64,000 bases of DNA, taken from an uncultured Gammaproteobacteria bacterium. GTDB taxonomy: Bacteria; Patescibacteriota; Patescibacteriia; UBA9934; CAZDDW01. This document shows, piece by piece, positions 1 to 17,064 of the stretch. Made by a program: the position numbers and the translations under genes. The DNA is taken from positions 686,595 through 750,594 of the forward strand of contig OZ246408.1 of NCBI GenBank assembly GCA_965231015.1, read 5' to 3'. The notes under the pieces were generated by a model that saw nothing but the letters and a program-made list of their open reading frames with translations, ran no database searches and was not told the origin of the DNA. How positions within the stretch are numbered: the first letter of the stretch is position 1; each line of letters begins with the position of its first letter.

Positions 1-948
1 CAAAACGAACACCTGGAAGAGCATATCGACGCCCTTACCAAAGCCAAGGTTGATGTTTTGGTTCCTTTTACTGTAGACGAACGGCTGGTTGGATTTATGA
101 TTTTCGGTAAACGCCGGTACGAAAAAATGCTTCGTTCGCGAGACATTAAATTTATTGAGTTAATGCGAAACGCCATCTCCCCTGCCCTTGAAAATGCGGC
201 CAAGTACGCGGAAATAAAAGATTTGTACGCTGAACTGTCTGAACTTGATAAAATCAAATCTGAATTCATTACCGTGGTCTCCCACAGCTTCCGAACCCCT
301 CTTTCAGCTATTCGTTGGAACGTGGAAGAGGTTTTGGATGATTACGCCAAAAGACTTGATAAAGCTGCAAAAAATGCCCTAAACGACGCTCACACCAAGA
401 CTATTTTCCTGATCAAAACCTTGGAACACCTCTTAGAAACCATTGCTTTTGAGTCCCCTGACATGATGCTCCAAAAAAGCATGTTCATGACCAAACCGAC
501 CCTGAAGTCACTTATGTCTACGGTGTCGGAAATCATGAAGAAAAAGAATGTCAACTTCTCATCCAAAGTTTCCAACCTGCCAATTCTGGCTGATAAAAAA
601 CTGCTCACCCAGGTATGTGAGAGCTTGCTCTTAAATGCGGCTCAATACACCCACGCGCACGATACAGTCACTTTTCACCTGTCCCCTGAAGATGGGCACA
701 TAAAAATCGAGGTTAAGGACACAGGAATCGGTATTCCGAAAAAAGACATTGATCGCATTTTTGAAAAGTTCTACCGCGCGAAAAATGCTCGGCTCGTGTA
801 CACGGACGGACAAGGTATGGGTCTATACTTAATCAAACGAATAATCGATATGCACCAGGGGTCAATCAAAGTTGATTCCACTCTTGAGGAGGGTGCTAAA
901 TTTACCCTATTAATTCCTGTAGGCCTAAACGGAAAGAAAAAAAGCTAA
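1..948 (+). CDS. Sensor histidine kinase, C-terminal part (5' end lies upstream of the window)
   Basis: Reading frame is open from nt 1. H-box HSFRTPLSAIRW, N-box LLLNAAQYT and G-boxes DTGIGIP / GQGMGLYLIKRII are present. The ORF stops at 948. Confidence 0.85.
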   Translation, partial: QNEHLEEHIDALTKAKVDVLVPFTVDERLVGFMIFGKRRYEKMLRSRDIKFIELMRNAISPALENAAKYAEIKDLYAELSELDKIKSEFITVVSHSFRTPLSAIRWNVEEVLDDYAKRLDKAAKNALNDAHTKTIFLIKTLEHLLETIAFESPDMMLQKSMFMTKPTLKSLMSTVSEIMKKKNVNFSSKVSNLPILADKKLLTQVCESLLLNAAQYTHAHDTVTFHLSPEDGHIKIEVKDTGIGIPKKDIDRIFEKFYRAKNARLVYTDGQGMGLYLIKRIIDMHQGSIKVDSTLEEGAKFTLLIPVGLNGKKKS

Positions 949-1018: not shown

Positions 1019-1402
1019 ATGTCTACCAAATCTGCAAAAAAAATCCTCCTTGTCGAGGATGACGAAATGTTACACAAAGTTTTGTCAGAACGCTTAAAAA
1101 AAGAGGGGGTTGAAATTCAGGTGGCAACCGATGGTGAGCAGGCTATTACCAAAGCCGAATCCTTCTCACCTGACCTGATCCTGCTCGATATCATTTTGCC
1201 AAAAAAAAGTGGTTTTGAGGTTCTTCAAGAACTGCGCAGTAGATCCAAATTCAAAAAAACTCCGGTTGTGATTTTGTCAAACCTCGGCCAAGAAGAAGAT
1301 ATTGCTCAAATGAAAAAACTCGGTGTGAAAGAGTATCTGGTCAAGGCTGATTTTTCTTTAACAGAAATGACCAACAAAATCAAAGAACATCTTGACAAAT
1401 AA
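1019..1402 (+). CDS. Single-domain response regulator (CheY-like receiver)
   Basis: 127 aa. Receiver motifs LLVEDDE ... DLILLDIILPKKSGFEVL ... K, with no output domain. It sits 5 nt upstream of the pilB start. Confidence 0.85.
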   Translation: MSTKSAKKILLVEDDEMLHKVLSERLKKEGVEIQVATDGEQAITKAESFSPDLILLDIILPKKSGFEVLQELRSRSKFKKTPVVILSNLGQEEDIAQMKKLGVKEYLVKADFSLTEMTNKIKEHLDK

Positions 1403-1407
1403 TTGTT

Positions 1408-3102
1408 ATGTCACTCAAAGAAAACAAATACAAAGAAATACTGGTTGATTACGATCTAATCTCGCAGGCAGAATACGACAAAGTCCTAAAAATATCTAAA
1501 GAAACTGAACGACCTTTGGAAGCAGTATTAGTTGATCAGGGTCATTTTACTGATCAACAGATTGGTAAACTAATTGCCAATGCTTACGAAGCAAAATTTG
1601 TTGACCTTAATAAAATTGAAATTGACCCAAAAGCCATTCAGGATATTCCTGAAATTTTTGCAAAAAAACAGAGCATTATTTCTTACGGTTGGAAAAACGG
1701 GGTTCGCCAAGTAGCCATGAATGATCCACACAACCTGGAACTGATTGATTTTGTGGAAAAGAAAATTGGTGAACAGGTTGATGTCTCTTACACCACTCCC
1801 GGTTTGATCGAACAGGCCTTTGCTGCTTATAGCACTAACGTGGCTGTAAAAATTCTTGATATCAGCAAAGAGTTTGCCAAGCTGGTTGGTAAAAGCAAGC
1901 CCTCACAAAAGGAAAGAGACCGTATGGAAGAGCTGATTGTCACCGTAACAGATCAATTGCTCAACTACGGCTATGACAACAAGGCTTCTGATATTCATAT
2001 TGAACCGCGAGAGAGTGATTTTTTGGTGCGTTACCGCGTAGACGGTATTTTGCACGATGAATTTGTGATGCCAAAGAAAATGCATAACGCCATTGTTTCG
2101 CGTATTAAGATTCTCTCAAACCTGCGCACGGATGAACACCTGGCTGCCCAGGATGGCAAATTCCGTTTCCGAGTTGGCAGTGATAAGATTGATGTACGTG
2201 TTTCGATCTTGCCGGTTGTCAACGGAGAAAAAGTGGTCATGCGACTGCTTGCTGAAAAAGGCCAACAGTACACATTAGAAAACATTGGTCTGGCTAAACT
2301 TGACATGGAGCGCGTGCGTGAGGCCGCTGAAAAACCGTACGGCATGATTCTTGTGACCGGTCCTACCGGAAGTGGTAAAACCACCACTCTCTACACCGTG
2401 CTCAAACTATTAAACACCCGCGACGTTAATATTTCCACTATTGAGGATCCGGTGGAGTATGACATTGCCGGGGTAAATCAAATTCAAGTTAATGAACGCA
2501 CCAATCTAACCTTTGCCGCTGGTCTGCGTTCTATTGTTCGTCAAGACCCGGACATTATCATGGTAGGTGAGATTCGTGATGAAGAAACCGCAGGGATCGC
2601 TGTTAACTCGGCCATGACCGGACACTTGGTTTTATCCACTCTTCACACCAACGATGCTCCAACCGCTCTGCCACGTTTGCTGGACATGGACGTGGAGCCG
2701 TTTTTGATTGCCTCATCAGTCAACGTGATTGTAGCTCAACGATTGGTTAGAAAAATTTGTCCCAACTGTATTACCAGCACATCTTTGAACGTAGAAAAAC
2801 TAAAAAAAGCTGTTTCTCCGGAAGTTTACAAACAATACTTTGGCTCAAAGAAAAATGCCCGCGTGTTCAAGGGCAAAGGCTGTGATCTGTGTCACCATTC
2901 CGGCTACACCGGACGAACCGGTATTTTTGAAGTTCTTACTATTTCCAGCCACATCCGAAAACTAATCATGGAACGAGCTAATGCGGAAGAAATCAAAGAA
3001 GCGGCCATGAAAGAAGGAATGACCACCATGATTGAAGACGGAATTAAAAAAATGATTGAAGGTGTGACCACTCTAGATGAAGTATTACGCGTTGTAAAGT
3101 AA
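1408..3102 (+). CDS. pilB: Type IV pilus assembly ATPase PilB/GspE family
   Basis: 564 aa. Walker A GPTGSGKTTT, Asp-box, His-box and a tetracysteine CPNC...CDLC motif typical of GspE/PilB. Confidence 0.9.
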   Translation: MSLKENKYKEILVDYDLISQAEYDKVLKISKETERPLEAVLVDQGHFTDQQIGKLIANAYEAKFVDLNKIEIDPKAIQDIPEIFAKKQSIISYGWKNGVRQVAMNDPHNLELIDFVEKKIGEQVDVSYTTPGLIEQAFAAYSTNVAVKILDISKEFAKLVGKSKPSQKERDRMEELIVTVTDQLLNYGYDNKASDIHIEPRESDFLVRYRVDGILHDEFVMPKKMHNAIVSRIKILSNLRTDEHLAAQDGKFRFRVGSDKIDVRVSILPVVNGEKVVMRLLAEKGQQYTLENIGLAKLDMERVREAAEKPYGMILVTGPTGSGKTTTLYTVLKLLNTRDVNISTIEDPVEYDIAGVNQIQVNERTNLTFAAGLRSIVRQDPDIIMVGEIRDEETAGIAVNSAMTGHLVLSTLHTNDAPTALPRLLDMDVEPFLIASSVNVIVAQRLVRKICPNCITSTSLNVEKLKKAVSPEVYKQYFGSKKNARVFKGKGCDLCHHSGYTGRTGIFEVLTISSHIRKLIMERANAEEIKEAAMKEGMTTMIEDGIKKMIEGVTTLDEVLRVVK

Positions 3103-3212
3103 ATTTTCAATTTAACAATTTACAATTTTCGATTTAAACACCAATGATCAATTGATAACTGAACCTTGATCATTAAATGAAAACTGAAAATTGAAAACTG
3201 ATCATTATATTT

Positions 3213-4403
3213 ATGCGTTACGTTTACACTGTCGCTGATAAAAAAGGCGAAAAAAAGCACGGTGTCATAGAGGCGGACGACAGGAAAAAAGCTATTGCAG
3301 AATTGAAACGGTCGGGCAAGACCATAATTTTCTTATCAGCCGAAACCAAGAAAATAATTCTCTATCTCCCCTACGTTTCCAGCTTTGAAAAAATGGCCAT
3401 GACTAAACACCTGGCTATCATGCTTAAAGCCGGTTTGACCCTGGACGCCACCATGAAAACCCTGATCCTTCAGTTCACAGGGAAACTGCGGAGTGTTTTA
3501 GACGATGTTTACGACAGTATTGAAGCTGGTTCAGGATTAGCCGAAGCTATGGCCCAACACCCGCGTGTGTTCAACGACTACTTTGTAAACATGGTAAAAG
3601 CCGGTGAATCAAGTGGTAATCTACCGGAGAATCTGGAACGTTTAGCCGACCGGTTAAGCAAAGACCATGAACTGAAACAAAAAGTGGTCAGTGCTATGTT
3701 TTATCCGACCATGGTTTTTGCTCTCACCCTGGCGCTTGCTTTATCCATTTCTTTATTTGTACTTCCTCGCCTGACCGGACTTTTTAAAGCTTTTGACTTT
3801 GAGCTTCCGTTAACCACTAAAATCATGCTGGTCTTTTCCAACTTTATGGCCAACCATGGTGTTTTAGCGGCCATGATTGTTATTATCGGCATCCCAACCT
3901 TCATTTTTGTTTTAAGACTAAAGCCGGTCCGACCGTTTTCCCATGCCCTGTATCTTAAGCTGCCTCTGATCAACAAACTGATCATGGATATTAATTTGGC
4001 TCGTTTTTCCATTATTTTGTCCTCCCTTTTGGAAAGCGGTTTACCAATTGATAAGGCGGTTAAAATCTGTCGGGACGTTATTGGAAACTACCGCTACAAA
4101 GCGGCTATTCAACGTTTAAACGAAGGAATTGTCACCGGAAAACCGGCCTCTGATGTTTTGTCTGAATTTCAAAGTATTTTCCCACCGTTTGTGGTGCAAA
4201 TGATTGCTTCCGGTGAAGAATCAGGGAAACTCGAAGACATGTTGTCATACCTTGGAGAATTCTATGAAAAAGAACTGGATAATAAACTTAAAAACCTTTC
4301 CACCATCGTTGAACCGGGTCTATTAATAATCATTGGTTTAATGGTGGCCTTTACGGCCATTGCCATTATCACTCCGGTTTACAACTTTATTGGAGAAATT
4401 TAA
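3213..4403 (+). CDS. pilC: Type IV pilus platform protein PilC/GspF family
   Basis: 396 aa with two GspF-type repeats and three TM segments. It lies immediately downstream of pilB. Confidence 0.85.
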   Translation: MRYVYTVADKKGEKKHGVIEADDRKKAIAELKRSGKTIIFLSAETKKIILYLPYVSSFEKMAMTKHLAIMLKAGLTLDATMKTLILQFTGKLRSVLDDVYDSIEAGSGLAEAMAQHPRVFNDYFVNMVKAGESSGNLPENLERLADRLSKDHELKQKVVSAMFYPTMVFALTLALALSISLFVLPRLTGLFKAFDFELPLTTKIMLVFSNFMANHGVLAAMIVIIGIPTFIFVLRLKPVRPFSHALYLKLPLINKLIMDINLARFSIILSSLLESGLPIDKAVKICRDVIGNYRYKAAIQRLNEGIVTGKPASDVLSEFQSIFPPFVVQMIASGEESGKLEDMLSYLGEFYEKELDNKLKNLSTIVEPGLLIIIGLMVAFTAIAIITPVYNFIGEI

Positions 4404-4405
4404 TT

Positions 4406-4888
4406 ATGTTCTTTTCGCTTGGCAAAACCAAGCCCGCACGTGACGGTTTTACCCTTTCCGAAACACTTTTAGTGGTCAGTATCATTGTCTTACTGGCTAT
4501 TTTAGCGATTCCGGTATATACGAACTTTTACCACAAGTATCAATTGGACACCGCTTCTCATGACACTCTACAGTTCTTGCGGGTCGCTCAAGTTAATGCC
4601 ATGGCCAGCCGTGGTCATGACGAATATGGGCTCCGGATTGTCTCCGGAGACGGCGGTTCAATTGAAATCTTTAAAGGGCCGAGTTATGCGGGTCGAGATA
4701 CTTCATTTGAAGGAGAGATTATCAACTTTCCCTCGAATGTAAATATCTCTGAAACCGTGGTTGGATCAGACATTGTCTTTACTCGTGTAGAAGGATCAAC
4801 CCCAGACACCGGAACTATCACACTTTATAACCAAGCTGACACTAAAATAATTTCTATTTATGAAACCGGGCTGGTGGAACTTGACTAA
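4406..4888 (+). CDS. Prepilin-type (pseudopilin/minor pilin) protein
   Basis: N-terminus MFFSLGKTKPARDG|FTLSETLLVVSIIVLLAIL is a class III signal with Glu at +5 after the cleavage Gly. Confidence 0.8.
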   Translation: MFFSLGKTKPARDGFTLSETLLVVSIIVLLAILAIPVYTNFYHKYQLDTASHDTLQFLRVAQVNAMASRGHDEYGLRIVSGDGGSIEIFKGPSYAGRDTSFEGEIINFPSNVNISETVVGSDIVFTRVEGSTPDTGTITLYNQADTKIISIYETGLVELD

Positions 4889-7800
4889 ATACCGACACGG
4901 ATCGGTTATGATTGAGGCCCTGATGGCGGTCGCGATTTTTGGTATTGGGGCGTCCAGTATTGTGTATTTGATTCTCGGCTCCCTGGAAACCACTCGTTCG
5001 GGTTCAGACTACACCGCAGCCCAAGAATACTTAAACGAGGGCTGGGAAGCCACCCGTTCAATTGGTACCAACAACTATAATGCCCTTGAGATTAGCCCGA
5101 CGACCTTTGGAGTTGATGACACTTCCGGGGAATGGGTTTTTTCCGGCACCAGCAATACGGATGGATATTTTACTCGCACTATCGATATCAATCCGGTTTA
5201 CCGAGATGCTTTGGGTGATATTGCTCCAACCGGAACCATTGACATTAATCTGCGCGAAATCATTGTTAATGTCTCCTGGTACGAAACTCCAACCAAACAA
5301 CGAAGTGTTTTTTCAACTTTTTATTTTTCTAACTGGGACTCTGACTCCTGGTTTGAAGACACGGAAGCTGACTTTTCTGACGGTACGTTTACGAGCACTG
5401 AAACAACTCTGCATGATGACGGAGAGGTTGCCCTAGAAGCCATCGGAGGCGGATCAGATGATTGGGGCTGCGTAGAGCAAACCTTGACTTATGATATCTC
5501 AGGAACAGCTGACTATAATGACCTTGATGTTGTTGATAATACTTTGTATATGGTTCGTGAATCAGACACCGGTCCGGAACTCGTAATTTATGACGTAAGC
5601 ACCCCGGATAGCCCCAGCCTGCTCGGCTCCATGGACTTAACCACTACGGGTAACGCTATTAAGGTAGATGATGGTTACGCCTACATTGCCTCGATTCATA
5701 ACAGTTATGAATTAGGAGTGATTGATGTATCTGATCCGGCGGCACCTTTTTTGGCTGGTGGGTATGATGCGGCCGGAACCGCTAATGGTAGTGATGTGTA
5801 TGTAGATGGTGATCGAGTATATCTTGCTCGAGAAAGCAGTGCCGCAGATGAATTCTTTATTTTGAACGTTGCCACTCCATCCACACCGGTTTTTGTTGGT
5901 TCTTATGATGTTGGAGACACGGTTGAGGGACTGGTTGTTGATACCACCAATGATGTGGCATTTTTGGCCACCCGTGGTGATGCTCGTGAACTCACTGCGG
6001 TCAATATCTCTACCGAAACCTCACCCGTGCTTCACAGTGAGTATGATATACCGGGTATTGATAACGCTACTGACGTAGCTCTCGATGACACACTTAACTA
6101 CGCCATTGTCACACGCACCACGGATACTGGTTCAGAAATTTTTGTAGTTAACGTTAGTGATCCTACCAACATTACTGCTGAGACTGATTTAGAAGCGGAC
6201 CGAGACGCCATCGGGGTTTATGTTGATGGAGATTATGCTTTGGTGGTTACCAATGACCCGGGATACGGCTTAATCACCATTGATTTTTCCAATCCTGCCA
6301 CAGCCACCACTTTAAGCACAATAGACATTGACGGTGACGCCAACGCGGTGATTGCCGCGGACAATCACCGTATATACGTAGCCACCGGTAATGATTCAGG
6401 TGAACTAATGGTATACAAAGCCGGCGGAGGGTGGGCTTGCCCAAGTTTTGTGGGGAATTATGACGACACCGCAGGAACTGACGCGGTACGACTTGATCTT
6501 GTGGGTGATACTCTTTACTTGACCAAAGAAAGTTCAGGTAATGACGAATTGGTTATTTTGGACGTCACTGACCGCTCCTCCCCTTCCCTGCTTGGCTCCA
6601 TTGATATTGGAGACACAATTTTTGATATAGATGTCGAAGGAAACTACGCTTACTTGGCCACGAATGGGGACGAGCTGGTCATTGTTGACGTTTCTAATCC
6701 AAGCTCGTTGTCTATTGCAGGAACCTTTGACGCCACCGGTGGAGCCGATGGTTACGCGGTAGTGGTCAACGCTGACCGAGCCTATTTGGGACGCAACAGC
6801 AGTAGCAGTGATGAATTATATATCATAGACGTTTCCAACCCGGCCGCACCTGTGGAACTGGATTCTTTTGATGCCGGTGATGACGTCAATGGCCTTGCTT
6901 ACTCCGGTGGGTATGTTTATCTAGCTTCCGACCATAATACTTACACTTTTGAAAACTATGACGTCTCTTTCGATACGTGGAGCTGGGTAGACTATATCCA
7001 ATATCCAACCAACCTGCGCGACGTTTATGTCAATGGTAATTATGCCTATGTGGTGGGCGAAGATAATCCGGGAAATGAATTCTTCATTATTGATATCACA
7101 GACCCAACCAATTATTCTGAGGTTGGTTCAGCAGAAATAAACGAGGACAGTTACGAAGTTTGGAGCGACGGGAACTATGCTTTCTTAAGCGCGCATATAA
7201 CTGACCAGGAAATCATGATTTATGACGTCTCCAATCCAACCGGCCCGTCTTTTGTTCAAAGTTATGACATAAGTGGCGGAACCTATGACGTTTTTGGAAT
7301 TGAAGGAGACGGAAGTTATTTATATGCTTCCGGTGAATCTGATGATCAGGAACTCATCATATTAGAGCCATACGTCAGCTCTGGCCTGGCGGACACATAT
7401 ATCCATGATAGCTTGGCAGAATTTAATGGCAGTTATTCTGATACACAGTGGAACACGGACCACCTTGAACTTGATGCCACCGGCATCACAAACGGAACTG
7501 GTACCTACACCTCCCCAATCATAGACTCTGGTCAAGCTGACTCGGCCTGGGGTGACTTGGCCTGGACCGAAGAGCTTAATAATTCACCGGATCTGCGTAT
7601 GGAAGCTGGTAGTACCACAGCTACGAGTAGCTACAGCACGGTTACCCTACAAAACACCTACGAAAATCCCGTTGTGGTTCCCTTCTATTTCGAAAGTAAT
7701 AACGCTGACCCGGTTTCGGTTCGTTTGGACAATATTACCAGTACCAGTTTCGATCTGAAGCTTCAAGAACCGGACGGGACTACTCCTTCTTCAGACACGG

Positions 7801-9881
7801 TTCACTATTTCGTAATTGAATCCGGCGCTTTTGAATTACCTGACGGTACCCTGATTGAAGCCGGAACTTATGACAGCAGTACGGTAGCTTCTAAAGCCAA
7901 CGGATGGAACGGTGATAATATCAACTTCACCCAAGCCTTCACTTCTGCTCCAGTAGTTATGCATGCGGTTCAAACCGAAAACGACAGCACCTGGATTTCC
8001 AGTTTCATTTCCGCTCAAGGTAGCCAAAACAACCCGCCAACCTCCACCGGTTTTCAGATTGCCATGAACGGAGCCGAGGCAGTTAATAGTCATGACCCGG
8101 AAACTCTGGGTTGGGTGGCTTTTGAGACCGCCACCGGTTTGATTGATGGAACAGCCTACGAATTTGTTAACAACGGAGATGGCACTACCGGACACGCTAA
8201 CGGTTGTACTGTTAAAAATTTCTCCAACTCCTACTCTTCCCCACCTCTGGTTATTGCTGACCAGCAAGAAATGGATGGTGGTGATGGAGGGTGGCTGGTT
8301 GGCTGTTCAGGCCCAACTTCTTCGAATTACGGCGAACATGTTGAAGAAGACACGGTTGGTGACACTGACCGAGGTCATACCGGTGAAACCACGGCCTACA
8401 TTGCTTTTGAAAGCGCGTTCGATTTTGAACAATCAACTTCGAGTAATCCTTTGCGCCTTGAGGTTGGCTCAACGTCTGTAACCTCGGCTTTCAACACGGT
8501 CAACCTACAACTTTCCTACACTGATCTGGTAGTTATTCCTTTCCATATGGAAAGCTCTAATACCATTCCCGTTTCTACTCGCATCACTAATATCACCTCC
8601 AACAGTTTTGACATTAAACTCGACAACCCATCGGGCAGTACTCCTTCCAGTGAAACAGTTTATTACATTGTAGCCGAGACCGGTATCTACACTTTGCCCG
8701 GAGGAAGTATTCTTGAAGTATTTAAAGCTGACACCAGCCAGGTTAGTTCGTCCGGAGCCGGCTGGAGCGGCACCAACTACAACTACGTCAGCAGCTTTGC
8801 TTCAACTCCGGTTGTTTTACACCATGTTCAAACCAACAATGACCCGGCCTGGATTTACTCTTATGTTTCCGAACAAGGCACGGCCACCAACCCTCCGACA
8901 GCTACTGGTTTCCAATACTCTCTTAACGGTGCTGAGGTCACCAATTCCCACGGATCTGAAACCATTGGTTTTATTATTCTGGAACAGGGTACGGGCAATA
9001 TTACCGGAATCGATTTTGAAAACACGGTTCACAGCAATAACACCCGTGGTCACGATGATGGTTGTTACACCCAAACTTATTCCGGTTTTTTCTTCCCTGC
9101 TCCGCTCGTAATTGCCAAACAGCAGGGTATGGCCGGACCTAACGGCGGATGGTTAGTGGGTTGCTCGGGTCCAAGTTCTTTCAACTACGGAGCTCATGTT
9201 GAAGAAGATCAGGTTGGAGACGGGGAAAGAAACCACACCGACGAATACACGGCTAGCTCTATTTTTGAAGCCGCTTTCGATTACGAAGAGGCTGAAAATG
9301 ATCTTGTCTTCCAGGTTCGTTCTTGTGATGACGCCGGTTGTGTCGGTGAATCATTTATGGGTCCGGACGGCACCAGTGGTACCTACTACACCACTCCTGA
9401 CGGCGAGGCGTTAAATGTTGCTGAAAACCAATATTTCCAATATCAGGTCACCTTTACATCCGGTGATGGCGCCACTACTCCGGAACTGTATGACGTCACT
9501 TTTGACTTTGGTCCTGGCGGTGGAGGCGGCGGCGGATCCTACGAAACCGCCGGCACTTACCGTTCGAACGCTTATGACGCAGGTGGAACCGCTAATTGGA
9601 ACACCCTTGAATGGACCGAAGAGGTCACGGGTTGCGGTACTTGTGACATTAAGGTGCAGATTCGCACCGCAACCACACCCGGTGGCCTATCCGGAGAACT
9701 TTGGCAGGGTCCAGAAGGTAAAGATGGTGATGAAACCGACTTCTTCACTGGCCCGTCCGGCGACCTGATCCATCCGGATCATAACGGAGACCAGTGGATC
9801 CAGTATCTAGTAACCCTGACCGGAGATGGCACTACTACCCCGTATTTTGAAGATATCTTTATCACTTACACCAACTACTAA
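4860..9881 (+). CDS. Giant pilin-headed surface protein (1673 aa) with LVIVD beta-propeller repeats and an internal tandem 286-aa duplication
   Basis: The N-terminus ...RHG|SVMIEALMAVAIFGIG is prepilin-like, with Glu at +5. About 14 LVIVD-type repeats (ELVIYDVSTP, EFFILNVATP, ELVIVDVSNP, ELYIIDVSNP, EIMIYDVSNP ...) span roughly nt 5500-7380. Two tandem 286-aa units (7593-8450 and 8451-9308) are about 50% identical. A G7 run lies at ~9511-9540. The first 29 nt overlap the upstream gene. Confidence 0.75.
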   Translation: MKPGWWNLTKYRHGSVMIEALMAVAIFGIGASSIVYLILGSLETTRSGSDYTAAQEYLNEGWEATRSIGTNNYNALEISPTTFGVDDTSGEWVFSGTSNTDGYFTRTIDINPVYRDALGDIAPTGTIDINLREIIVNVSWYETPTKQRSVFSTFYFSNWDSDSWFEDTEADFSDGTFTSTETTLHDDGEVALEAIGGGSDDWGCVEQTLTYDISGTADYNDLDVVDNTLYMVRESDTGPELVIYDVSTPDSPSLLGSMDLTTTGNAIKVDDGYAYIASIHNSYELGVIDVSDPAAPFLAGGYDAAGTANGSDVYVDGDRVYLARESSAADEFFILNVATPSTPVFVGSYDVGDTVEGLVVDTTNDVAFLATRGDARELTAVNISTETSPVLHSEYDIPGIDNATDVALDDTLNYAIVTRTTDTGSEIFVVNVSDPTNITAETDLEADRDAIGVYVDGDYALVVTNDPGYGLITIDFSNPATATTLSTIDIDGDANAVIAADNHRIYVATGNDSGELMVYKAGGGWACPSFVGNYDDTAGTDAVRLDLVGDTLYLTKESSGNDELVILDVTDRSSPSLLGSIDIGDTIFDIDVEGNYAYLATNGDELVIVDVSNPSSLSIAGTFDATGGADGYAVVVNADRAYLGRNSSSSDELYIIDVSNPAAPVELDSFDAGDDVNGLAYSGGYVYLASDHNTYTFENYDVSFDTWSWVDYIQYPTNLRDVYVNGNYAYVVGEDNPGNEFFIIDITDPTNYSEVGSAEINEDSYEVWSDGNYAFLSAHITDQEIMIYDVSNPTGPSFVQSYDISGGTYDVFGIEGDGSYLYASGESDDQELIILEPYVSSGLADTYIHDSLAEFNGSYSDTQWNTDHLELDATGITNGTGTYTSPIIDSGQADSAWGDLAWTEELNNSPDLRMEAGSTTATSSYSTVTLQNTYENPVVVPFYFESNNADPVSVRLDNITSTSFDLKLQEPDGTTPSSDTVHYFVIESGAFELPDGTLIEAGTYDSSTVASKANGWNGDNINFTQAFTSAPVVMHAVQTENDSTWISSFISAQGSQNNPPTSTGFQIAMNGAEAVNSHDPETLGWVAFETATGLIDGTAYEFVNNGDGTTGHANGCTVKNFSNSYSSPPLVIADQQEMDGGDGGWLVGCSGPTSSNYGEHVEEDTVGDTDRGHTGETTAYIAFESAFDFEQSTSSNPLRLEVGSTSVTSAFNTVNLQLSYTDLVVIPFHMESSNTIPVSTRITNITSNSFDIKLDNPSGSTPSSETVYYIVAETGIYTLPGGSILEVFKADTSQVSSSGAGWSGTNYNYVSSFASTPVVLHHVQTNNDPAWIYSYVSEQGTATNPPTATGFQYSLNGAEVTNSHGSETIGFIILEQGTGNITGIDFENTVHSNNTRGHDDGCYTQTYSGFFFPAPLVIAKQQGMAGPNGGWLVGCSGPSSFNYGAHVEEDQVGDGERNHTDEYTASSIFEAAFDYEEAENDLVFQVRSCDDAGCVGESFMGPDGTSGTYYTTPDGEALNVAENQYFQYQVTFTSGDGATTPELYDVTFDFGPGGGGGGGSYETAGTYRSNAYDAGGTANWNTLEWTEEVTGCGTCDIKVQIRTATTPGGLSGELWQGPEGKDGDETDFFTGPSGDLIHPDHNGDQWIQYLVTLTGDGTTTPYFEDIFITYTNY

Positions 9882-9883
9882 AT

Positions 9884-10414
9884 ATGAAACTACGTCGCTC
9901 ACAACACGGCTATACCCTGGTGGAACTTCTGTTGACCATTGCAGTGCTGGCTTTGATTGGAGCGCTTGGTATTAACCTTTTCTTAGCTGTTTTAAATAAC
10001 AGAGCCAAGGTGATCGCCCAAATAGAGGTGCAACAAAACGCACACTTAGCCATGCAGCGCATAGTTTATGAAATCCGTCGCGCCTATGACACTGAGGCCA
10101 CTTCTGACTTTGATACTAATTTGGCTACCAATCCCGGCACTACGCTTGATCTGGACATGCCGGATGCTGGACGCGACCCAACCACCTTTGAAGTGAATTC
10201 CGGAGTCATCCAAATCACACAAGGAGCCGGCTCTACTGTTAACCTGACCTCAAACGACGTTGAGGTGACTGATTTAACAATTGAAGACCGAAGCACCGGG
10301 AACGGACGAAGCAACAACTTACGCGTCAATTTAACCATCAAATCTGTACTGGATGGACCAAACGCGCCTGATGCGGAAACTTTTGTCACCACAGTTGAAC
10401 TTAGGTATCCATAA
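9884..10414 (+). CDS. Prepilin-type pseudopilin
   Basis: MKLRRSQHG|YTLVELLLTIAVLALIGAL, with Glu at +5. Confidence 0.8.
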   Translation: MKLRRSQHGYTLVELLLTIAVLALIGALGINLFLAVLNNRAKVIAQIEVQQNAHLAMQRIVYEIRRAYDTEATSDFDTNLATNPGTTLDLDMPDAGRDPTTFEVNSGVIQITQGAGSTVNLTSNDVEVTDLTIEDRSTGNGRSNNLRVNLTIKSVLDGPNAPDAETFVTTVELRYP

Positions 10415-10416
10415 AT

Positions 10417-10836
10417 ATGCGGCAACTTTTTCAACAACTTAAAGACCAAAAAGGCTTTGTGACCATTACCACAGCTGTTATAATATTCTTTACAACCCTT
10501 ATTTTGGCCCTCTCCATTCAGTTTGCCGGCATTGGAGTGTTACAAACCGGATACTTAAACAATCTTTCTGCCCAAGCCTACTCTTTGGCTGATGGATGCT
10601 TAGAAGAAGCCATGCTCCGCTTAACCACGGATGACACTTATACCGGTGGTACGGTCACAGTCGGTGATGATTATTGCACCATTACCGTCACTGGAGCAGG
10701 TGCAACAAGAAACATTACCTCAATGTCCACGGTCAATGACATTGTCAATCGAGAAATTGAAGCCGATGTCACCATCACTGACATGGGCGGCTGGAACGAC
10801 GTTGTTATGACCGATTGGATGGAAACAATAAATTAA
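10417..10836 (+). CDS. Pilin-like minor subunit (non-canonical, no Glu+5)
   Basis: MRQLFQQLKDQKG|FVTITTAVIIFFTTLILALS has a hydrophobic pilin-like helix after Gly, but Thr at +5. This resembles PilX/GspK-type minor pilins. Confidence 0.55.
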   Translation: MRQLFQQLKDQKGFVTITTAVIIFFTTLILALSIQFAGIGVLQTGYLNNLSAQAYSLADGCLEEAMLRLTTDDTYTGGTVTVGDDYCTITVTGAGATRNITSMSTVNDIVNREIEADVTITDMGGWNDVVMTDWMETIN

Positions 10837-10839
10837 CCT

Positions 10840-13005
10840 ATGGGAAGAATCAACCAAATCGGACTTAGTATTTCTGATGCCTCGATCGAAATGATCCAGG
10901 TGACAAAGTCCGGCAAAAATAAAGCTAAAATTATCAGCACAGCCACCGGTCCGATACCGGCCGGTATTATTAATCGTGGTGTAATAAAGGATCATGAAAA
11001 GTTGATTCAGGTATTAAACAAGGTCTACGAGTCGGCCAAACCCAAACCTTTTAACACTAAGGATGTATCGGTATCTTTGCCTGACAATGTGGCTTTTACG
11101 CATGTTTTTAAGTTCCCGGGTGCCTTAAACGAAAACGATGTTGCATCAACTTTAAAATTTGAAGCCGAAGACATAATCCCTTACCCCATTGATGACCTGT
11201 ACGTCACCTTTAAAATAATCAAACAGAACGAAGAAAAAACCGATGTTTTGTTTGTAGGTGCCCCTAAAGATATTATTGACGGTTACGTTACCACCCTTGA
11301 AGAGGCGGGCTACAAAATAAAACAATTGGAAATTGAAGCCAACGCTTTGATTCGCGTTCTTATTCCGGGTATTGCTAAGGGTAAAGCAGTCATGATTATG
11401 GATCTTGGTGGCACCAACACTCGCTTCACCTTGGCTGATGAAGAAGGTCTGAACGGGTCTTTCAGCCTACCAGTTGGTGGCAATGCTATCACAGAAGCAA
11501 TTGCCAAAGAGCTCAGTATCTCCGGACGTGAAGCAGAAGCGTTAAAGAAAAAGAAGAGCAAAGGAAAGAAGGCAAAAGTAATTGAAAAAGCAATTGATGA
11601 ATACCTGGAGAAAATAGTAGAAAAGGCTGAAAAAGTGATTGAGTGGTATGGTCGAGAGGACGAAGGTCAATTAGATAAAATGGTCCTGACCGGCGGTGGA
11701 AGTGGTCTGCCCGATTTAACTGAAAAGCTGTCTCAAAAACTAACCGCGCGTAAGCTTTCCATGGATATTGTCATGGGCAGCCCTTGGCAGAACATTGAAA
11801 CCAAGACCGCTCCCAAGCCCGCCTCGGTAAGTGGCCGGATATTTGCACCGGCTCTTGGGGCTGTTCCGATTAAATCAAGCAAGCTGGTTCCGGAAATCGA
11901 CTTAATAGACGTCCTCGGCAAAAGAAGAAATCCATTTAAAAATGTTTCTAACGTCCAAAAAACTGTTGATTTAATGGCTAAGCAAGATCCAGGGGCAGAT
12001 AAAGAACCTTTATCTTTACGTCGATTATCCGTTCTCATTAATCAATACAACACTGTCTTTGCCATCATTGCCGCAGCAATAATTGTGGGGGCAATTGGTT
12101 TTATTATCTTCTGGCTCTTTTTTGCTGATCGCGATTTTCAACAATTAACCACACCAACAACAACTACGGAACCGACCATCACTGAAGAAGTTGGTGAAGA
12201 GCAGGATGAGAGTGAAACAGAAGCCACAACTGGTCAGTTAATTCTACAAATGGATATAAACGCCAGAACTAGTGATGTAGTAGCGGCCAACTATCAAGAA
12301 GTGCCTAGTTACGGAACCACTTTCAGCTACCAACTAGAAGCCACAGAAACAGTGGACAGTGTTGCCTCGGGACGAGTTACTTTGTTTAACAACACTTCTG
12401 CAGACCAACCTTTAATAACCACCACGCGTCTACTTTCTGAAGACGGGGTATTATTTCGTTTAACCAATGCGGTCACAGTTCCGGCTGAAGGTCAGATTGA
12501 GGCAGAGGTTTATGCTGACCAAGCAGGGGCTTCAGGCAATATTGCTTCAACCAGTTTTACGATCCCCGGCCTACCTGACTCCCTACAAGCAGACATTTAT
12601 GCCACAAGCTCCGAGGCCATGAGTGGCGGCACCGAAGAAGTAGCTATCTTTTCAGAAGAAGTATATGAACAGGCTCTAGCTGAACTAAAAAGACAATTAC
12701 TTAGTACGCCGAGCAACCTGTTTGGTGCTGAATCAACTGAAAACACCTACCTGGTTGATTTGGCAGAATTGGAGCCGGTGGAGTTAGAAACATCGGTTGA
12801 AATCGGGCAAAGTACGGATGTGGTTGAACTCATAGGAACGGTTAGTATTTCTGCTCTGTCTTTTAGTGAAACCAATCTAAAAGAAGTTATCAAAACGGTT
12901 TTAGAAAAACCGGACGCCCAGGTTGAAATAAACGGTATCTCGGTTGAAAGTGTTGCAGATGACCTGCAAACAGCTGAACTGGATGTGGAGTATTCGACGG
13001 ATTAG
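10840..13005 (+). CDS. pilM: PilM-like actin-fold ATPase fused to a TM segment and a ~290-aa extracytoplasmic acidic domain (PilM-PilN/O-like fusion)
   Basis: The N-terminal ~350 aa has a PilM/FtsA-like fold (MDLGGTNTRFTLADEEG, VLTGGGSGLPDL). A TM helix VFAIIAAAIIVGAIGFIIFWLFF lies around aa 405-428. The C-terminus is T/E-rich. Confidence 0.7.
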   Translation: MGRINQIGLSISDASIEMIQVTKSGKNKAKIISTATGPIPAGIINRGVIKDHEKLIQVLNKVYESAKPKPFNTKDVSVSLPDNVAFTHVFKFPGALNENDVASTLKFEAEDIIPYPIDDLYVTFKIIKQNEEKTDVLFVGAPKDIIDGYVTTLEEAGYKIKQLEIEANALIRVLIPGIAKGKAVMIMDLGGTNTRFTLADEEGLNGSFSLPVGGNAITEAIAKELSISGREAEALKKKKSKGKKAKVIEKAIDEYLEKIVEKAEKVIEWYGREDEGQLDKMVLTGGGSGLPDLTEKLSQKLTARKLSMDIVMGSPWQNIETKTAPKPASVSGRIFAPALGAVPIKSSKLVPEIDLIDVLGKRRNPFKNVSNVQKTVDLMAKQDPGADKEPLSLRRLSVLINQYNTVFAIIAAAIIVGAIGFIIFWLFFADRDFQQLTTPTTTTEPTITEEVGEEQDESETEATTGQLILQMDINARTSDVVAANYQEVPSYGTTFSYQLEATETVDSVASGRVTLFNNTSADQPLITTTRLLSEDGVLFRLTNAVTVPAEGQIEAEVYADQAGASGNIASTSFTIPGLPDSLQADIYATSSEAMSGGTEEVAIFSEEVYEQALAELKRQLLSTPSNLFGAESTENTYLVDLAELEPVELETSVEIGQSTDVVELIGTVSISALSFSETNLKEVIKTVLEKPDAQVEINGISVESVADDLQTAELDVEYSTD

Positions 13006-13034
13006 CTTATCCACAACAATTTTTTAGCTCAAAA

Positions 13035-13043
13035 TGCTATAAT
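13035..13043 (+). promoter_or_regulatory. Extended -10 promoter (TGcTATAAT) of pilin paralog 1
   Basis: A TGnTATAAT match lies 31 nt upstream of the ATG. Confidence 0.5.
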
Positions 13044-13073
13044 TAAGGTAATAAAATAATAAACAGAAACCAT

Positions 13074-13556
13074 ATGATAAATTTCAGGCGAAACAAAGAG
13101 GGTTTTACTTTGGTCGAGCTCCTCATTGTGATCGCAATCATTGTGATCCTGTTCGCTGTCATCTTGGTGGCCGTTGATCCACCAAAGCGACTTGGTCAAG
13201 CTCGAGATGCTGTGCGCCGTCAGGACGTTCGTGATATCCTCGAAGCGGTCCAACAATACATGGTGGACAACGATGGGGCTTACCCAACCGGACTGGACGC
13301 TGTTTCAGCCTCCTTCCAAGTACTTGGTACTGATGCCGCTGGATGTGACAGCACTTGTACAGCTGAAACTGCCCTGGCTGCTTGTTTAGACATGTCCGGT
13401 GACTTAGTTGAGGAATATCTGGCTGATATTCCATTTGATCCATCAAGCGGAGATGCTGGAAACACAGATTATGCTATCAATCGTACGGCTGGTGACCGCA
13501 TTGAAATAGTTGCTTGCGACCCGGAAATTGCAGCCACCATTTCAGTTAAACGATAA
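13074..13556 (+). CDS. Type IV major pilin (paralog 1)
   Basis: MINFRRNKEG|FTLVELLIVIAIIVILFAVILVAV is a canonical prepilin. A Cys-containing variable C-terminal region follows. An extended -10 promoter and a downstream terminator are present. Confidence 0.9.
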   Translation: MINFRRNKEGFTLVELLIVIAIIVILFAVILVAVDPPKRLGQARDAVRRQDVRDILEAVQQYMVDNDGAYPTGLDAVSASFQVLGTDAAGCDSTCTAETALAACLDMSGDLVEEYLADIPFDPSSGDAGNTDYAINRTAGDRIEIVACDPEIAATISVKR

Positions 13557-13571
13557 AACCAATCCGCAATT

Positions 13572-13602
13572 CCCCTTACAAATCCAAAAAGTAAGGGGTT
13601 TT
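13572..13602 (+). terminator. Intrinsic terminator after pilin 1
   Basis: Stem cccctTAC ... GTAagggg followed by TTTT. Confidence 0.7.
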
Positions 13603-13631
13603 GATATCCACAACCAAAATAAGCATAAAAA

Positions 13632-13640
13632 TGGTATAAT
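13632..13640 (+). promoter_or_regulatory. Extended -10 promoter (TGgTATAAT) of pilin paralog 2
   Basis: A TGnTATAAT match lies 32 nt upstream of the ATG, at the same spacing as paralog 1. Confidence 0.5.
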
Positions 13641-13671
13641 TGAGCCAACTTAAACAATTAATAATGTCTTT

Positions 13672-14151
13672 ATGATAAATTTCAGGCGAAACAAAGAGGG
13701 TTTTACTTTGGTTGAGCTCCTCATTGTGATCGCAATCATTGTGATCCTGTTCGCTGTCATCTTGGTGGCCGTTGATCCACCAAAGCGACTTGGTCAAGCT
13801 CGAGATGCTGTGCGCCGTCAGGACGTTCGTGATATCCTCGAAGCGGTCCAACAATACATGGTGGACAACGATGGGGCTTACCCAACCGGACTGGACGATG
13901 TTCAAACCTCATATCAGGTACTCGGAACCGGAGTTGGTTGTGACACCACTTGTGGTGCTGCTACCACCCTACCTGCTTGTTTAGACATGTCCGGTGACTT
14001 GGTTGAGGAATACCTGGCTGATATTCCATTTGACCCATCAACCGGAAGTGCGGCTAACACTGATTATGCCATCGAGCTAACTGCTGGCGACAGAATCGAA
14101 GTTTTAGCTTGTGACCCAGAAATTGCAGCCACAATTTCGGCCAAACGATAA
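13672..14151 (+). CDS. Type IV major pilin (paralog 2, tandem duplicate)
   Basis: The first 227 nt match paralog 1 with 1 mismatch. The middle and C-terminal regions diverge. Confidence 0.9.
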   Translation: MINFRRNKEGFTLVELLIVIAIIVILFAVILVAVDPPKRLGQARDAVRRQDVRDILEAVQQYMVDNDGAYPTGLDDVQTSYQVLGTGVGCDTTCGAATTLPACLDMSGDLVEEYLADIPFDPSTGSAANTDYAIELTAGDRIEVLACDPEIAATISAKR

Positions 14152-14174
14152 AGAAAAGTAAAGTTCTGATTATC

Positions 14175-14203
14175 CCCCACTTTCTCTCGAAAGTGGGGGT
14201 TTT
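14175..14203 (+). terminator. Intrinsic terminator after pilin 2
   Basis: Stem cccccacttt-ctctcg-aaagtggggg followed by TTTT. Confidence 0.8.
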
Positions 14204-14241
14204 GTGGTAAAATAACAAAAGTAAAAACAATAAAAAAACAC

Positions 14242-17064
14242 ATGTCTAAATTCATCTTCTTTCTATTAATTGTCTTTCTGATAGCCCCTTTGGCTCTTAC
14301 AAAGCCTGTCCCGGCTGCTGCGCGGGGTTCGCTTATCAAGGGCAGTTTACCGGCCGTGTATTACTTGGCTTCAGACGGAAAACGCTACGTCTTCCCTAAC
14401 GAAAAAATCTACTTTTCCTGGTATGAAAATTTTTCTGGAGTCAGCGAGATTAATGACAGCACCCTGGCTTCTTATGACCTTGGCGGTAATGTTTCTTACC
14501 GACCCGGCACACATTTAGTAAAGATTCAAAGCAATTCCACGGTTTATGCGGTTGAACCCGGCGGCATGCTTCGCGCCATTGATTCAGAAGAGACAGCCAG
14601 CACCCTTTACGGCTCTGACTGGGCCAGTCGAGTACACGACCTGCCAGACAGCTTTTTTTCTTATTACACGGTGACTAACGAGCTGGACGAAACAGTCTAT
14701 CCTGAAGGTAGTTTATTAAAAGATTCTGTCTCAAGTGAATACTACATCATTTTAAATGGACAAAAACGCCTCTTAAGCGATGACGGGATCACAGCCAACG
14801 GTATTCAGACCAAATACGCTATCACTACTGATACCAGCTCTTACACATCAGGAAGCACCGTTACTACAGAGATTACTGAACTGGCAGACACTGCCCAAAT
14901 TGACCAGGGACTCATCAATCAGGACACCATCATTGAGGTCAGCACGGTTCAAAATGAAACCACCGTATTACAGGACGCCAACAACGAAGTCCTGGCCACT
15001 TACATTTTCTCCCTTACCAAAGAAGTCGAAATCAAATCTCTGGTTTTACGCATTCGCGCTCACTCGAGCACAGATAGCGATGACGATCCGGGTGGATTAA
15101 TTTATGAAGAAGGAGGAGGCAACCTAGAAAATATTCGTTTTGTTACCTCAGACGGAACACAATTATTGTCTTCGCGTAGCTTAAGTTCAGATACCAACAA
15201 AGACGGCCAGCAAGATATTAGCTTTACCGGAACGGCTACTTTACCGGTGGGCCAACACACGGTCAATGTTCTGGTGGACGTTATCGAGGAAGTTCCGGAT
15301 GGTGAAAGCTATTCCACCACTTTATACCTATCTGACACCTCTTTTGAGATATCAGGCAACGAAACAACGGATTACACTCCGGAGAGCCTATCCAGCGGTA
15401 CAGTAACCGTTAAAACGCAAAATTTGGCCGTTTCCGTAGCTTCCAACCTGGAAAACCAGTATTTCCTAAAAGGTGGAAATTCAGACTTTGTAGACTTAAT
15501 CTCTTTCAAATTGGAAAACTCGCGCAAAGAATCCGTGACCGTCTCCGAATTCACCCTAACCGGCTATATTGACGAACACGAAGGTGATACTGACTTTGTG
15601 GCCGGAGCTGATTCGGATAACTCCGGATCCAGCTTTACCTATGTTGATGATGTAATCGATAAGGTTGAACTGATTAATGAGGAAACCGAAGAATTAATCG
15701 GAACCCAGTCCACAGTACAATCAAACGGCGCGGTTTCTTTTGGGAACATTGACCTTACCCTGGAAGCCGAAACCAGCGTTAACCTACTGACTCGGGTTTA
15801 TATTAATTCTGATGCACCTTTCGGCCTACAGTCAGACCGCATTTCTTTTGATATTGATGACGTAGAAGATGATATGACTGTTAAAGTGACCGGTACTAGC
15901 CAAGAAGTTGATATTGAAGCTACCAGCCTAAACAATGGATCCAGTCCCGGCTCATTTTTGACCGTTTCTGAATCAGGAACTCTGACCATAGAGGGGTCCG
16001 GCAGTGCTCCGGCACGTCTTATTATGGGAACCGAGGAAAATTCTATCTATTCTTTTACCTTTACCGCTTCTGAAGAGGAGGCCATGATCATTGATACCTT
16101 GACGGTTCGCTTGCTTGACCCAAACGCCCAAAGAAGTGTGTCTAAGGTTGAACTAAGGCACCTTGGGGATGATGGTTATGAATACGTTGATGGAAACTTT
16201 GTTAACAGCAACGCTACTTTTGAAAACCTGGACATTGAAGTTCCCCAGGACGATGAATTGACTGTCAGTGTTTTAGTAGACATTGGCGATGACAACTCAT
16301 CGGCTCAATCCGGAGACAAAATTGGGGTGGCTTTTGAAACCAATACTTTCAAAGCCCATGGTGCAACATCCGGAATCCGGTTTGATAAAGATGATCTAGG
16401 TGAACACCTGATTGATTCAACCAGCCTCGGCTCAGAAACCTTTGTTCGGCGTAACGAACCAAATGTCAGTCTAGCCGTGAACCAACCAGACGCCTCACAA
16501 GGTCGTTCTGACCAAACAGAAATTTTCACCTTTACCCTTGGCTCAGAAGGAGAGGGTAATCCGGAATTAGAGTTAATTACCTTCAAAATTACCACCTCTG
16601 ACGTTGGTTACGATTTAAACGAAGAAGAGGCCGACAATGACCTCTTGGAAGGGCTAGCTGATATCAACGGTGATAGTTCTGATGACGACGAAACGGTTGA
16701 GATAATTGATGAAGAAAGCGGTGACACAATTTGTGAGGGATCGAGTGGGCACATTGATTTCTCAATTTATGATTATTCCGAGAGTGAAATTGATACTACA
16801 CCGGCCGGGCTTGATACAGATCGAGAAGATTATGGTTTGATAGTTTGTGAGATGAATAATCCGCTTCGTATATATAACGAGGGTCGGGATTACACATTTG
16901 GCTTAAACACCACTGAGCTGGCACCCGGAGCGCAAAATGTCCGTGTTACGATCCTTGGCGGTGATGACTTCCGATGGAACGATGGAACCAATACCAGCCT
17001 AACAGAAAATGGAGACGAGATCAGTGGCCTGAACTTAAACTCCCAATACGCCTCGTTCCAGTAA
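14242..17064 (+). CDS. Large secreted acidic protein (940 aa), function unknown
   Basis: Signal peptide MSKFIFFLLIVFLIAPLALTKPVPAAA. Highly D/E/T/S-rich. It lies directly downstream of the pilin genes. Confidence 0.6.
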   Translation: MSKFIFFLLIVFLIAPLALTKPVPAAARGSLIKGSLPAVYYLASDGKRYVFPNEKIYFSWYENFSGVSEINDSTLASYDLGGNVSYRPGTHLVKIQSNSTVYAVEPGGMLRAIDSEETASTLYGSDWASRVHDLPDSFFSYYTVTNELDETVYPEGSLLKDSVSSEYYIILNGQKRLLSDDGITANGIQTKYAITTDTSSYTSGSTVTTEITELADTAQIDQGLINQDTIIEVSTVQNETTVLQDANNEVLATYIFSLTKEVEIKSLVLRIRAHSSTDSDDDPGGLIYEEGGGNLENIRFVTSDGTQLLSSRSLSSDTNKDGQQDISFTGTATLPVGQHTVNVLVDVIEEVPDGESYSTTLYLSDTSFEISGNETTDYTPESLSSGTVTVKTQNLAVSVASNLENQYFLKGGNSDFVDLISFKLENSRKESVTVSEFTLTGYIDEHEGDTDFVAGADSDNSGSSFTYVDDVIDKVELINEETEELIGTQSTVQSNGAVSFGNIDLTLEAETSVNLLTRVYINSDAPFGLQSDRISFDIDDVEDDMTVKVTGTSQEVDIEATSLNNGSSPGSFLTVSESGTLTIEGSGSAPARLIMGTEENSIYSFTFTASEEEAMIIDTLTVRLLDPNAQRSVSKVELRHLGDDGYEYVDGNFVNSNATFENLDIEVPQDDELTVSVLVDIGDDNSSAQSGDKIGVAFETNTFKAHGATSGIRFDKDDLGEHLIDSTSLGSETFVRRNEPNVSLAVNQPDASQGRSDQTEIFTFTLGSEGEGNPELELITFKITTSDVGYDLNEEEADNDLLEGLADINGDSSDDDETVEIIDEESGDTICEGSSGHIDFSIYDYSESEIDTTPAGLDTDREDYGLIVCEMNNPLRIYNEGRDYTFGLNTTELAPGAQNVRVTILGGDDFRWNDGTNTSLTENGDEISGLNLNSQYASFQ

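Follow-up and report, generated by a model that had tools for sequence, protein, structure and literature searches.

Two pilin genes that stand in tandem in a 64-kb stretch of contig OZ246408.1 (the whole stretch is called the window here), from an ultrasmall bacterium of the Patescibacteria (CPR), raise the question of how adjacent paralogues can be virtually identical over their first 75 codons and strongly diverged over much of the remainder. We compared the two genes, named pilA-1 and pilA-2, with each other and with the pilin genes of related loci. The pair is a genuine mosaic, and we consider it very probable that it descends from an old tandem pilin duplication that has been partly re-homogenised by RecA-type gene conversion within the genome, or by unequal exchange.

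Two pilin open reading frames (ORFs) lie on the plus strand between positions 12800 and 14400, 115 nucleotides (nt) apart as the original prediction had stated:

13074-13556, plus strand: pilA-1, full-length type IV prepilin, 160 residues (ORF list, PF07963, TIGR02532, AlphaFold2 model, profile matches)
13672-14151, plus strand: pilA-2, full-length type IV prepilin paralogue, 159 residues (ORF list, PF07963, TIGR02532)

The proposal that these are type IV pilins is borne out by the signal peptide, the family profiles, a fold model and the operon context. Both proteins begin with MINFRRNKEG followed by FTLVELLIVIAIIVILFAVILVAV, a class III (prepilin) signal peptide with Gly-1, Phe+1 and Glu+5, and cleavage of pilA-1 is predicted before F11 (G/FTLVELL). 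PF07963 (N_methyl) matches pilA-1 with E = 3.9e-8, and both pilins exceed the curated thresholds of PF07963 (33 bits, cut-off 21.2) and TIGR02532 (26 bits, cut-off 16.3). A profile built from 117 family members matches solved type IV pilins, namely Geobacter PilA, Thermus PilA4, Streptococcus sanguinis PilE1 and Neisseria meningitidis PilE. The AlphaFold2 (AF2) model of pilA-1, made on the family alignment (predicted local distance difference test score of 91.4), has a helix at residues 13-65 and a small four-stranded head, and the window pilins thus have the 'lollipop' form of a long N-terminal helix on a small β-sheet head. A Foldseek search of the PDB with the four-cysteine head of the Patescibacteria pilin yielded no significant match. 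The two proteins are 88% identical; all 19 of the 19 substitutions and the one-residue indel lie beyond residue 75, and pilA-2 retains every family-invariant residue. On these features both genes are type IV pilins. A role as major pilins is suggested by their small size, by a promoter and a terminator of their own, and by the separate set of minor pilins encoded at 4406-10836.

In the public genome record both pilins (P0001 and P0007) are started at an internal TTG (Leu13), giving proteins of 148 and 147 residues that begin with MVELLIV. This start strips the prepilin leader and the G/F cleavage site, so that neither P0001 nor P0007 has a precomputed Pfam hit. The pilin pair of the related locus L001 (see below) is mis-started likewise. 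The lesson for annotation is that start calls at an internal TTG remove the signal peptide and mask pilin identity in a public genome.

Codon alignment, exact comparison and permutation all uphold the mosaic pattern that had been claimed for the pair. Its segments are as follows:

13073-13299, plus strand: homogenised tract of copy 1, covering the signal peptide, the whole α1 helix and the first 10 residues beyond it (one mismatch)
13671-13897, plus strand: homogenised tract of copy 2, partner of 13073-13299 (same evidence as copy 1)
13300-13379, plus strand: diverged centre of pilA-1, codons 76-102, with strand β1 and the loop that carries C91 and C95 (68% nt identity; AF2 secondary structure)
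13380-13445, plus strand: second near-identical block, codons 103-124, with C104, a short helix and DMSGDLVEEYLADIPFDPS; partner at 13975-14040 (62/66 nt identical)
13446-13556, plus strand: diverged 3' tail of pilA-1, with β-sheet and C148; partner at 14041-14151 (75% nt identity)

In the 5' tract the sole mismatch is a silent C/T difference at 13115/13713 (GTC/GTT), and codons 1-75 specify the same amino acids in both copies. The predicted identity from the ATG to codon 75 therefore stands for the protein, whereas the accompanying count of one mismatch in 227 nt does not: the figure is one in 226 coding nt, or two in 227, with position 13300 already mismatched. This 5' block occurs in exactly two copies in the window. 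The centre had been described as a strongly diverged segment of about 80 nt with conserved cysteine spacing, and it is: its partner in pilA-2 (13898-13974) is one codon shorter and keeps the spacing. The block of codons 103-124, previously put at 95% identity, is 94% identical, and the estimate of about 75% for the tail agrees with ours. When the 56 differences were permuted 100,000 times over the 477 sites, no permutation reached the observed identical run of 184 nt.

The silent sites carry the argument for gene conversion. Among codons that specify the same amino acid in pilA-1 and pilA-2, a silent difference is present in 1 of 73 within codons 1-75 and in 22 of 64 within codons 76-160 (Fisher's exact test, P = 1.5e-7). 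The longest stretch free of silent differences spans 61 codons (P = 2e-5 in a permutation of silent sites only). Nei-Gojobori estimates of synonymous substitutions per synonymous site (dS) are, from the 5' to the 3' segment, 0.02, 0.90, 0.25 and 1.09. Expressed as the proportion of synonymous sites that differ (pS), the divergence is 0.02 in the 5' block versus 0.52 in the centre and 0.57 in the tail. The corresponding proportion for nonsynonymous sites (pN) is 0.24 in the centre and 0 in codons 103-124, and the ratio of nonsynonymous to synonymous substitution (dN/dS) is 0.33 in the centre and 0.14 in the tail.

Related loci were found by a profile search of metagenome contigs with the N-terminus removed from the query; in a full-length-alignment search of genome contigs, distant pilins, mostly from Planctomycetota, were among the matches listed, through the generic GFTLVELL pattern. 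Homologues of the window pilins carry the source names Patescibacteria or Uhrbacteria. Over codons 1-75 the window pilins show 31-34 silent differences among 55-58 comparable codons when set against those of the syntenic locus L001 (GCA_054038955.1), and the same 75 codons give a pS of 0.77-0.79 against the closest relative, L086. Codon-level constraint is excluded as the source of the 5' identity because, between genomes, the same codons differ silently at the frequency seen with L001. Gene conversion between duplicated genes is a well-known mechanism, and we regard recent homogenisation within the genome, by gene conversion, as the best explanation of the 5' identity. The earlier claim that conversion homogenises the assembly and helix part of the gene gains backing from the heterogeneity of the silent sites, from this comparison between genomes and from the recurrence of such tracts in relatives. 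Two marks of concerted evolution are present in the window: paralogues within the genome are closer than orthologues at silent sites, and silent divergence is heterogeneous between tracts. A third mark of conversion, conflicting relationships among segments, is found in the five-gene array of locus L111, the window having two copies.

Tandem pilins occupy the same operon position in at least ten independent related assemblies. Locus L001, which shares with the window a PilM fusion, two pilins, a large secreted protein and FtsX/FtsE, has a mosaic pair of its own, in which codons 1-54 and 76-118 are near-identical and codons 55-75 have a pS of 0.71. In L094 (an array of at least three pilin copies) and in L101, pS is 0.06-0.12 in codons 21-40 versus 0.4-0.9 elsewhere, and in L088 the homogenised tract lies in the 3' half. 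The metagenome contig L111 holds, at 1119-3864, five pilin paralogues in a row; their spacers of 30-39 nt are, judged by length, too short for separate terminators and promoters. Gene 2275 of this array is closest to gene 1119 in its 5' part (93%) and to gene 2833 in its 3' part (84%), and the nearest partner of gene 1720 also switches between its 5' and 3' parts. Further tandem pilins are present in L085, L091, L105, L108, L109 with the P0015 contig, and L112. The pairs of L108, L109 and L112 serve as controls: their N-terminal amino acids are identical and their silent differences many, so homogenisation is episodic and not universal. Roughly twelve loci whose flanks are adequate, L082, L107 and L110 among them, have a single pilin.

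Of the other histories that could produce such a pair, the one that survives best, though we think it improbable, is a very recent duplication of the whole gene, after which the 3' 60% of one copy was replaced from another strain or species. The pili of Patescibacteria are of a type commonly tied to DNA uptake. Close relatives are sparsely sampled, the nearest pilin having about 74% DNA identity, so the donor could be unsampled, and the tail of pilA-2 is 72-73% identical to pilins of other genomes, nearly as much as its 75% to pilA-1. However, pilA-1 is the top match of pilA-2 in every segment, with 68% identity in the centre against at most 59% for other loci, and the silent divergence between the copies (pS 0.52-0.57) is below that to most other genomes (0.61-0.89). 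An import would also require a second event for the 94% block at codons 103-124, and many independent mosaics lie inside the relatives' own arrays.

Programmed variation of the pilin, by cassettes of the pilE/pilS kind, by an invertase switch or by a diversity-generating retroelement, is very unlikely. Pilins are classic targets of such systems (PMC2188579) and the relatives have arrays of up to five, but both window copies are complete, with a start codon, a leader and a promoter-like element; neither of them is a silent, 5'-truncated cassette, and the 64 kb hold just the two copies. A Neisseria-type pilE/pilS system was rejected on the ATG, leader and TGnTATAAT of both copies, on the lack of further copies in the window and on the lack of a G-quadruplex (G3+N1-7, four times) on either strand of 11501-15000. 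Switching by a Moraxella Piv-type invertase was rejected because no inverted repeats flank the pilins; positions 12500-14800 hold two 14-nt inverted pairs, at chance level, and the copies themselves are direct repeats. A diversity-generating retroelement was rejected on the mismatch pattern, with no systematic search for a reverse transcriptase made: all twelve types of substitution are represented among the 56 mismatches (27 transitions, 29 transversions), and these have no adenine bias, A standing in 14 of them in copy 1 and in 16 in copy 2.

We give still less weight to a young duplicate under positive selection, in which the centre and tail of a recent pair would have diverged fast at exposed residues. 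The centre does have the highest dN/dS in the gene and varies more across the family than any other segment. Nevertheless, silent sites of the centre and tail are as diverged as replacement sites (pS 0.52-0.57, versus 0.02 for the 5' block), and in no segment does dN/dS reach 1. Selection at the protein level could not have produced silent divergence of that age, which contradicts this history. An assembly or polishing artefact, in which two strain variants were joined in tandem or the 5' blocks were equalised, might be suspected, as the genome is of metagenome type (NCBI records the protein on a single contig of 1,002,985 bp) and 226-nt repeats are a classic assembly hazard. It is scarcely credible given a unique, functional-looking 115-nt spacer with a hairpin and then a promoter-like element, the tandem pilins of at least ten independent related assemblies, including L001 with its own mosaic, and the one silent mismatch that persists within the block.

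The same measurements bear on the nature of the diverged centre, for which the original prediction had proposed a dedicated hypervariable disulfide-loop region undergoing diversification. This is not borne out as stated. The pS of the centre (0.52) equals that of the tail (0.57), which marks the centre as old, unconverted sequence. The dN/dS of the pair, taken by segment as had been suggested, exceeds 1 in no segment; the pairwise value is higher in the centre than in the tail and in both well below 1. Across the family no segment of the mature protein varies more than the centre, by a modest margin (2.0 bits, versus 1.4-1.7 elsewhere in the head), and in L001 the segment that corresponds to it is 96% identical between the copies, the diverged part there being codons 55-75. 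On the simplest reading, the centre is unconverted and less constrained head sequence, with nothing that marks it as a targeted hypervariable cassette. Antigenic or receptor-specificity variation of these pilins, which had also been proposed, would be speculation.

Several points weigh against the history of old duplication and partial conversion, or against parts of it. The excess of silent-site conservation in codons 103-124 is of marginal significance (3/21 versus 19/43, P = 0.025), and this block may be an older conversion tract or may reflect strong purifying selection alone. A relative-rate test for faster amino-acid change in copy 2 was not significant (10 versus 5 sites, P = 0.30). The species is represented by one database genome and each protein cluster has a single member; the conversion event, with any direction and frequency, is a reading of the sequence and not a direct observation. 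Expression of both genes is predicted from motifs, with a promoter scan that lacks a -35 match, and the role of pilA-1 and pilA-2 as major subunits, like their co-assembly, is likewise deduced.

In the history that we favour, the ancestral tandem duplication is old, the unconverted parts having accumulated about 1 silent substitution per site. The latest conversion began at the start codon, ran as far as codon 75 (about 226 nt) and took in the leader peptide, the whole α1 helix and the start of the α-β region; the 66 nt of codons 103-124 could preserve an older, shorter one. The likely pathway is RecA-type ectopic recombination between direct repeats, and the tracts would end at the ATG because homology stops there. 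Conversion appears to be episodic, with a tract position that differs among genomes. The preference for α1 may arise from purifying selection, which would preserve the similarity that seeds recombination; if so, the bias in tract position needs no selection for diversity.

Because the signal peptide and polymerisation core are identical, the same peptidase and the same assembly machine should accept both pilins. The heads, which differ at 19 positions and by one indel, would then place two surface chemistries on one machine. Most likely, pilA-1 and pilA-2 are co-assembled in a mixed filament or used as alternative subunits. Alternative use is as possible as a mixed filament because a hairpin and a promoter-like element lie between the genes. 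The predicted regulatory elements are:

13007-13043, plus strand: pilA-1 promoter region, TTATCCACAAC, 20 nt, then the extended -10 element TGCTATAAT (direct reading, motif search)
13572-13602, plus strand: hairpin and UUUU 3' of pilA-1, with an 8-bp G+C-rich stem and an 11-nt loop (-15.6 kcal/mol, z = -4.1)
13604-13640, plus strand: pilA-2 promoter region, ATATCCACAAC, 20 nt, then the extended -10 element TGGTATAAT (direct reading, motif search)
14174-14203, plus strand: intrinsic terminator 3' of pilA-2, with an 11-bp stem, a 4-nt loop and a T run (consensus scan and fold)

The sequence TGnTATAAT is present at 13035-13043 and 13632-13640. An extended -10 element at a like distance from each gene had been predicted with spacings of 31 and 32 nt; we find the elements as described and read the spacings to the ATG as 30 and 31 nt. 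The companion statement that the upstream sequences are unrelated has to be withdrawn: ATCCACAAC is found at 13009 and 13606, exactly 20 nt 5' of TATAAT in each case and nowhere else in the 64 kb, and the dissimilarity is confined to the 30-nt leader that separates the -10 element from the ATG. The layout TTATCCACA-N21-22-TATAAT also precedes pilins in L086 and L108. In the form (T/A)TATCCACA-N21-22-TATAAT, with the TG of an extended -10 element, it spans 13007-13043 and 13604-13640 in the window, 478-514 in L086 and 3481-3517 in L108, where it precedes the second pilin copy. The upstream motif of the TATCCACA type may be an activator site or a promoter element specific to the lineage. A consensus promoter scan found no -35 match and called neither pilin promoter, and the -10 elements were read directly.

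Each gene had been credited with a terminator of its own, and a G+C-rich hairpin with a T run does lie 3' of each, the first being the weaker. The hairpin after pilA-2 folds at -20.8 kcal/mol (z about -4). That after pilA-1, on account of its 11-nt loop and just four T, went unscored in the consensus scan, which picked up the second hairpin alone; its strength as a terminator is probably low or partial.

The leaders of the two genes (13044-13073 and 13641-13671, about 30 nt) are A+T-rich, with no recognisable Shine-Dalgarno sequence near the start; the same is seen upstream of the L001 pilins.

By analogy, the closest studied system to the window pair is PilE1/PilE2 of S. sanguinis (PilA1-3 in strain CGMH010). 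The portions of the two reports on which this comparison draws describe neighbouring major-pilin paralogues that polymerise together into a heteropolymeric type IV pilus, and propose that the mixed pilins give the pilus a mosaic surface (PMC6497953, PMC10628169). As far as those portions go, both cases have adjacent, full-length paralogues in the pil locus of an organism that lacks an outer membrane, an identical α1, an overall identity of about 80-88% and differences confined to the globular head. The likeness is drawn at the level of protein identity. Co-assembly has been demonstrated in S. sanguinis, whereas for the window pair it is deduced, and the heads differ there by an 8-residue loop and here by 19 substitutions and a 1-residue indel.

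In Neisseria, non-reciprocal recombination between pilE and pilS makes mosaic pilin genes with a constant N-terminal part and a variable head (PMC2188579). Recombination between pilin copies, a shared N-terminal part and a differing head are common to that system and the window pair. However, Neisseria has one expressed gene, many promoterless, 5'-truncated donors and an initiator consisting of a G-quadruplex and a small RNA, whereas both window copies are complete with promoters and no G-quadruplex is present. Conversion also acts on opposite parts, diversifying the variable part in Neisseria and homogenising the constant part in the window. Long-lasting concerted evolution of duplicated bacterial genes by ectopic conversion has been surveyed (PMC6053082), in a text in which the word 'pilin' does not occur. 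The window pair resembles the surveyed cases in that paralogues within the genome are closer than orthologues between genomes, identity is patchy and silent sites are homogenised; unlike them, its conversion is partial and episodic, the old, diverged heads remain and the products stay different.

Type IV pili are the main known tool with which cultivated Patescibacteria find and hold host cells (PMC11623550, PMC9894109). The Saccharibacteria strain TM7x needs its T4P-1 and T4P-2 pili for host binding and competition, and PilX2 is required in host binding (PMC11623550). TM7x belongs to the same superphylum, and like the window it combines a small major pilin (highly expressed in TM7x) with a large β-propeller minor pilin. 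It has two machineries with each major pilin at a separate locus, whereas the window has one machinery and two adjacent, near-twin pilins; neither 'tandem' nor 'duplicat' is used in that report. Our literature search, made in a limited library and so not proof of absence, returned no description of conversion among tandem Patescibacteria pilins.

Duplicated major pilins with identical N termini are already known, as is conversion among pilin copies, and the window pair, though a clear example of conversion between duplicated pilin genes, is a rather ordinary one. The mosaic arrays found across the family, with up to five pilins, are the part most worth pursuing. Many members of this one Patescibacteria pilin family have 2-5 adjacent near-twin pilins with a common helix, different heads and ongoing exchange of segments, which points to mixed or switchable filaments as a possibly common feature of the huge and mostly uncultured Patescibacteria. 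A bolder and rather doubtful possibility is that the arrays of two to five pilins form a combinatorial system of surface variation, in which conversion would keep the helix interchangeable and shuffle segments of the head. If that were true, one pilus machine could show changing mosaic surfaces, for example to escape phage or to alter the range of hosts or partners, and episymbiotic bacteria would possess a promoter-proficient, cassette-free counterpart of Neisseria antigenic variation.

The pilin pair ends a same-strand type IV pilus operon that it shares with the assembly machinery PilB, PilC and PilM:

58-948, plus strand: histidine kinase
1019-1402, plus strand: receiver protein
1408-3102, plus strand: PilB
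3213-4403, plus strand: PilC
4406-4888, plus strand: minor pilin
4860-9881, plus strand: pilin-like protein of 1673 residues with LVIVD propeller and H-type lectin domains
9884-10414, plus strand: minor pilin
10417-10836, plus strand: minor pilin
10840-13005, plus strand: PilM fusion of 721 residues

The 1673-residue product of 4860-9881 has a pilin-like hydrophobic N-terminus, LVIVD β-propeller repeats (E = 1e-39) and H-type lectin domains, and its gene overlaps the preceding minor pilin gene by 29 nt. It is likely to be a pilus-tip adhesin, resembling the propeller-bearing PilX2 of Saccharibacteria, and receptor specificity would more plausibly lie with this propeller/lectin minor pilin.

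The 721-residue PilM fusion has an actin-like PilM domain (8-305), followed by a membrane segment and, beyond it, an extended extracytoplasmic part that gives a weak match of the Baseplate_J type; PilM fusions of the same length (682-755 residues) precede the pilins at all related loci. Directly 3' of the pilin pair, 14242-17064 encodes a protein of 940 residues that bears a signal peptide and matches no Pfam family. Its position is conserved in L001 (4431-7349, 972 residues), and it is absent at the loci where IF-2 follows the pilins.

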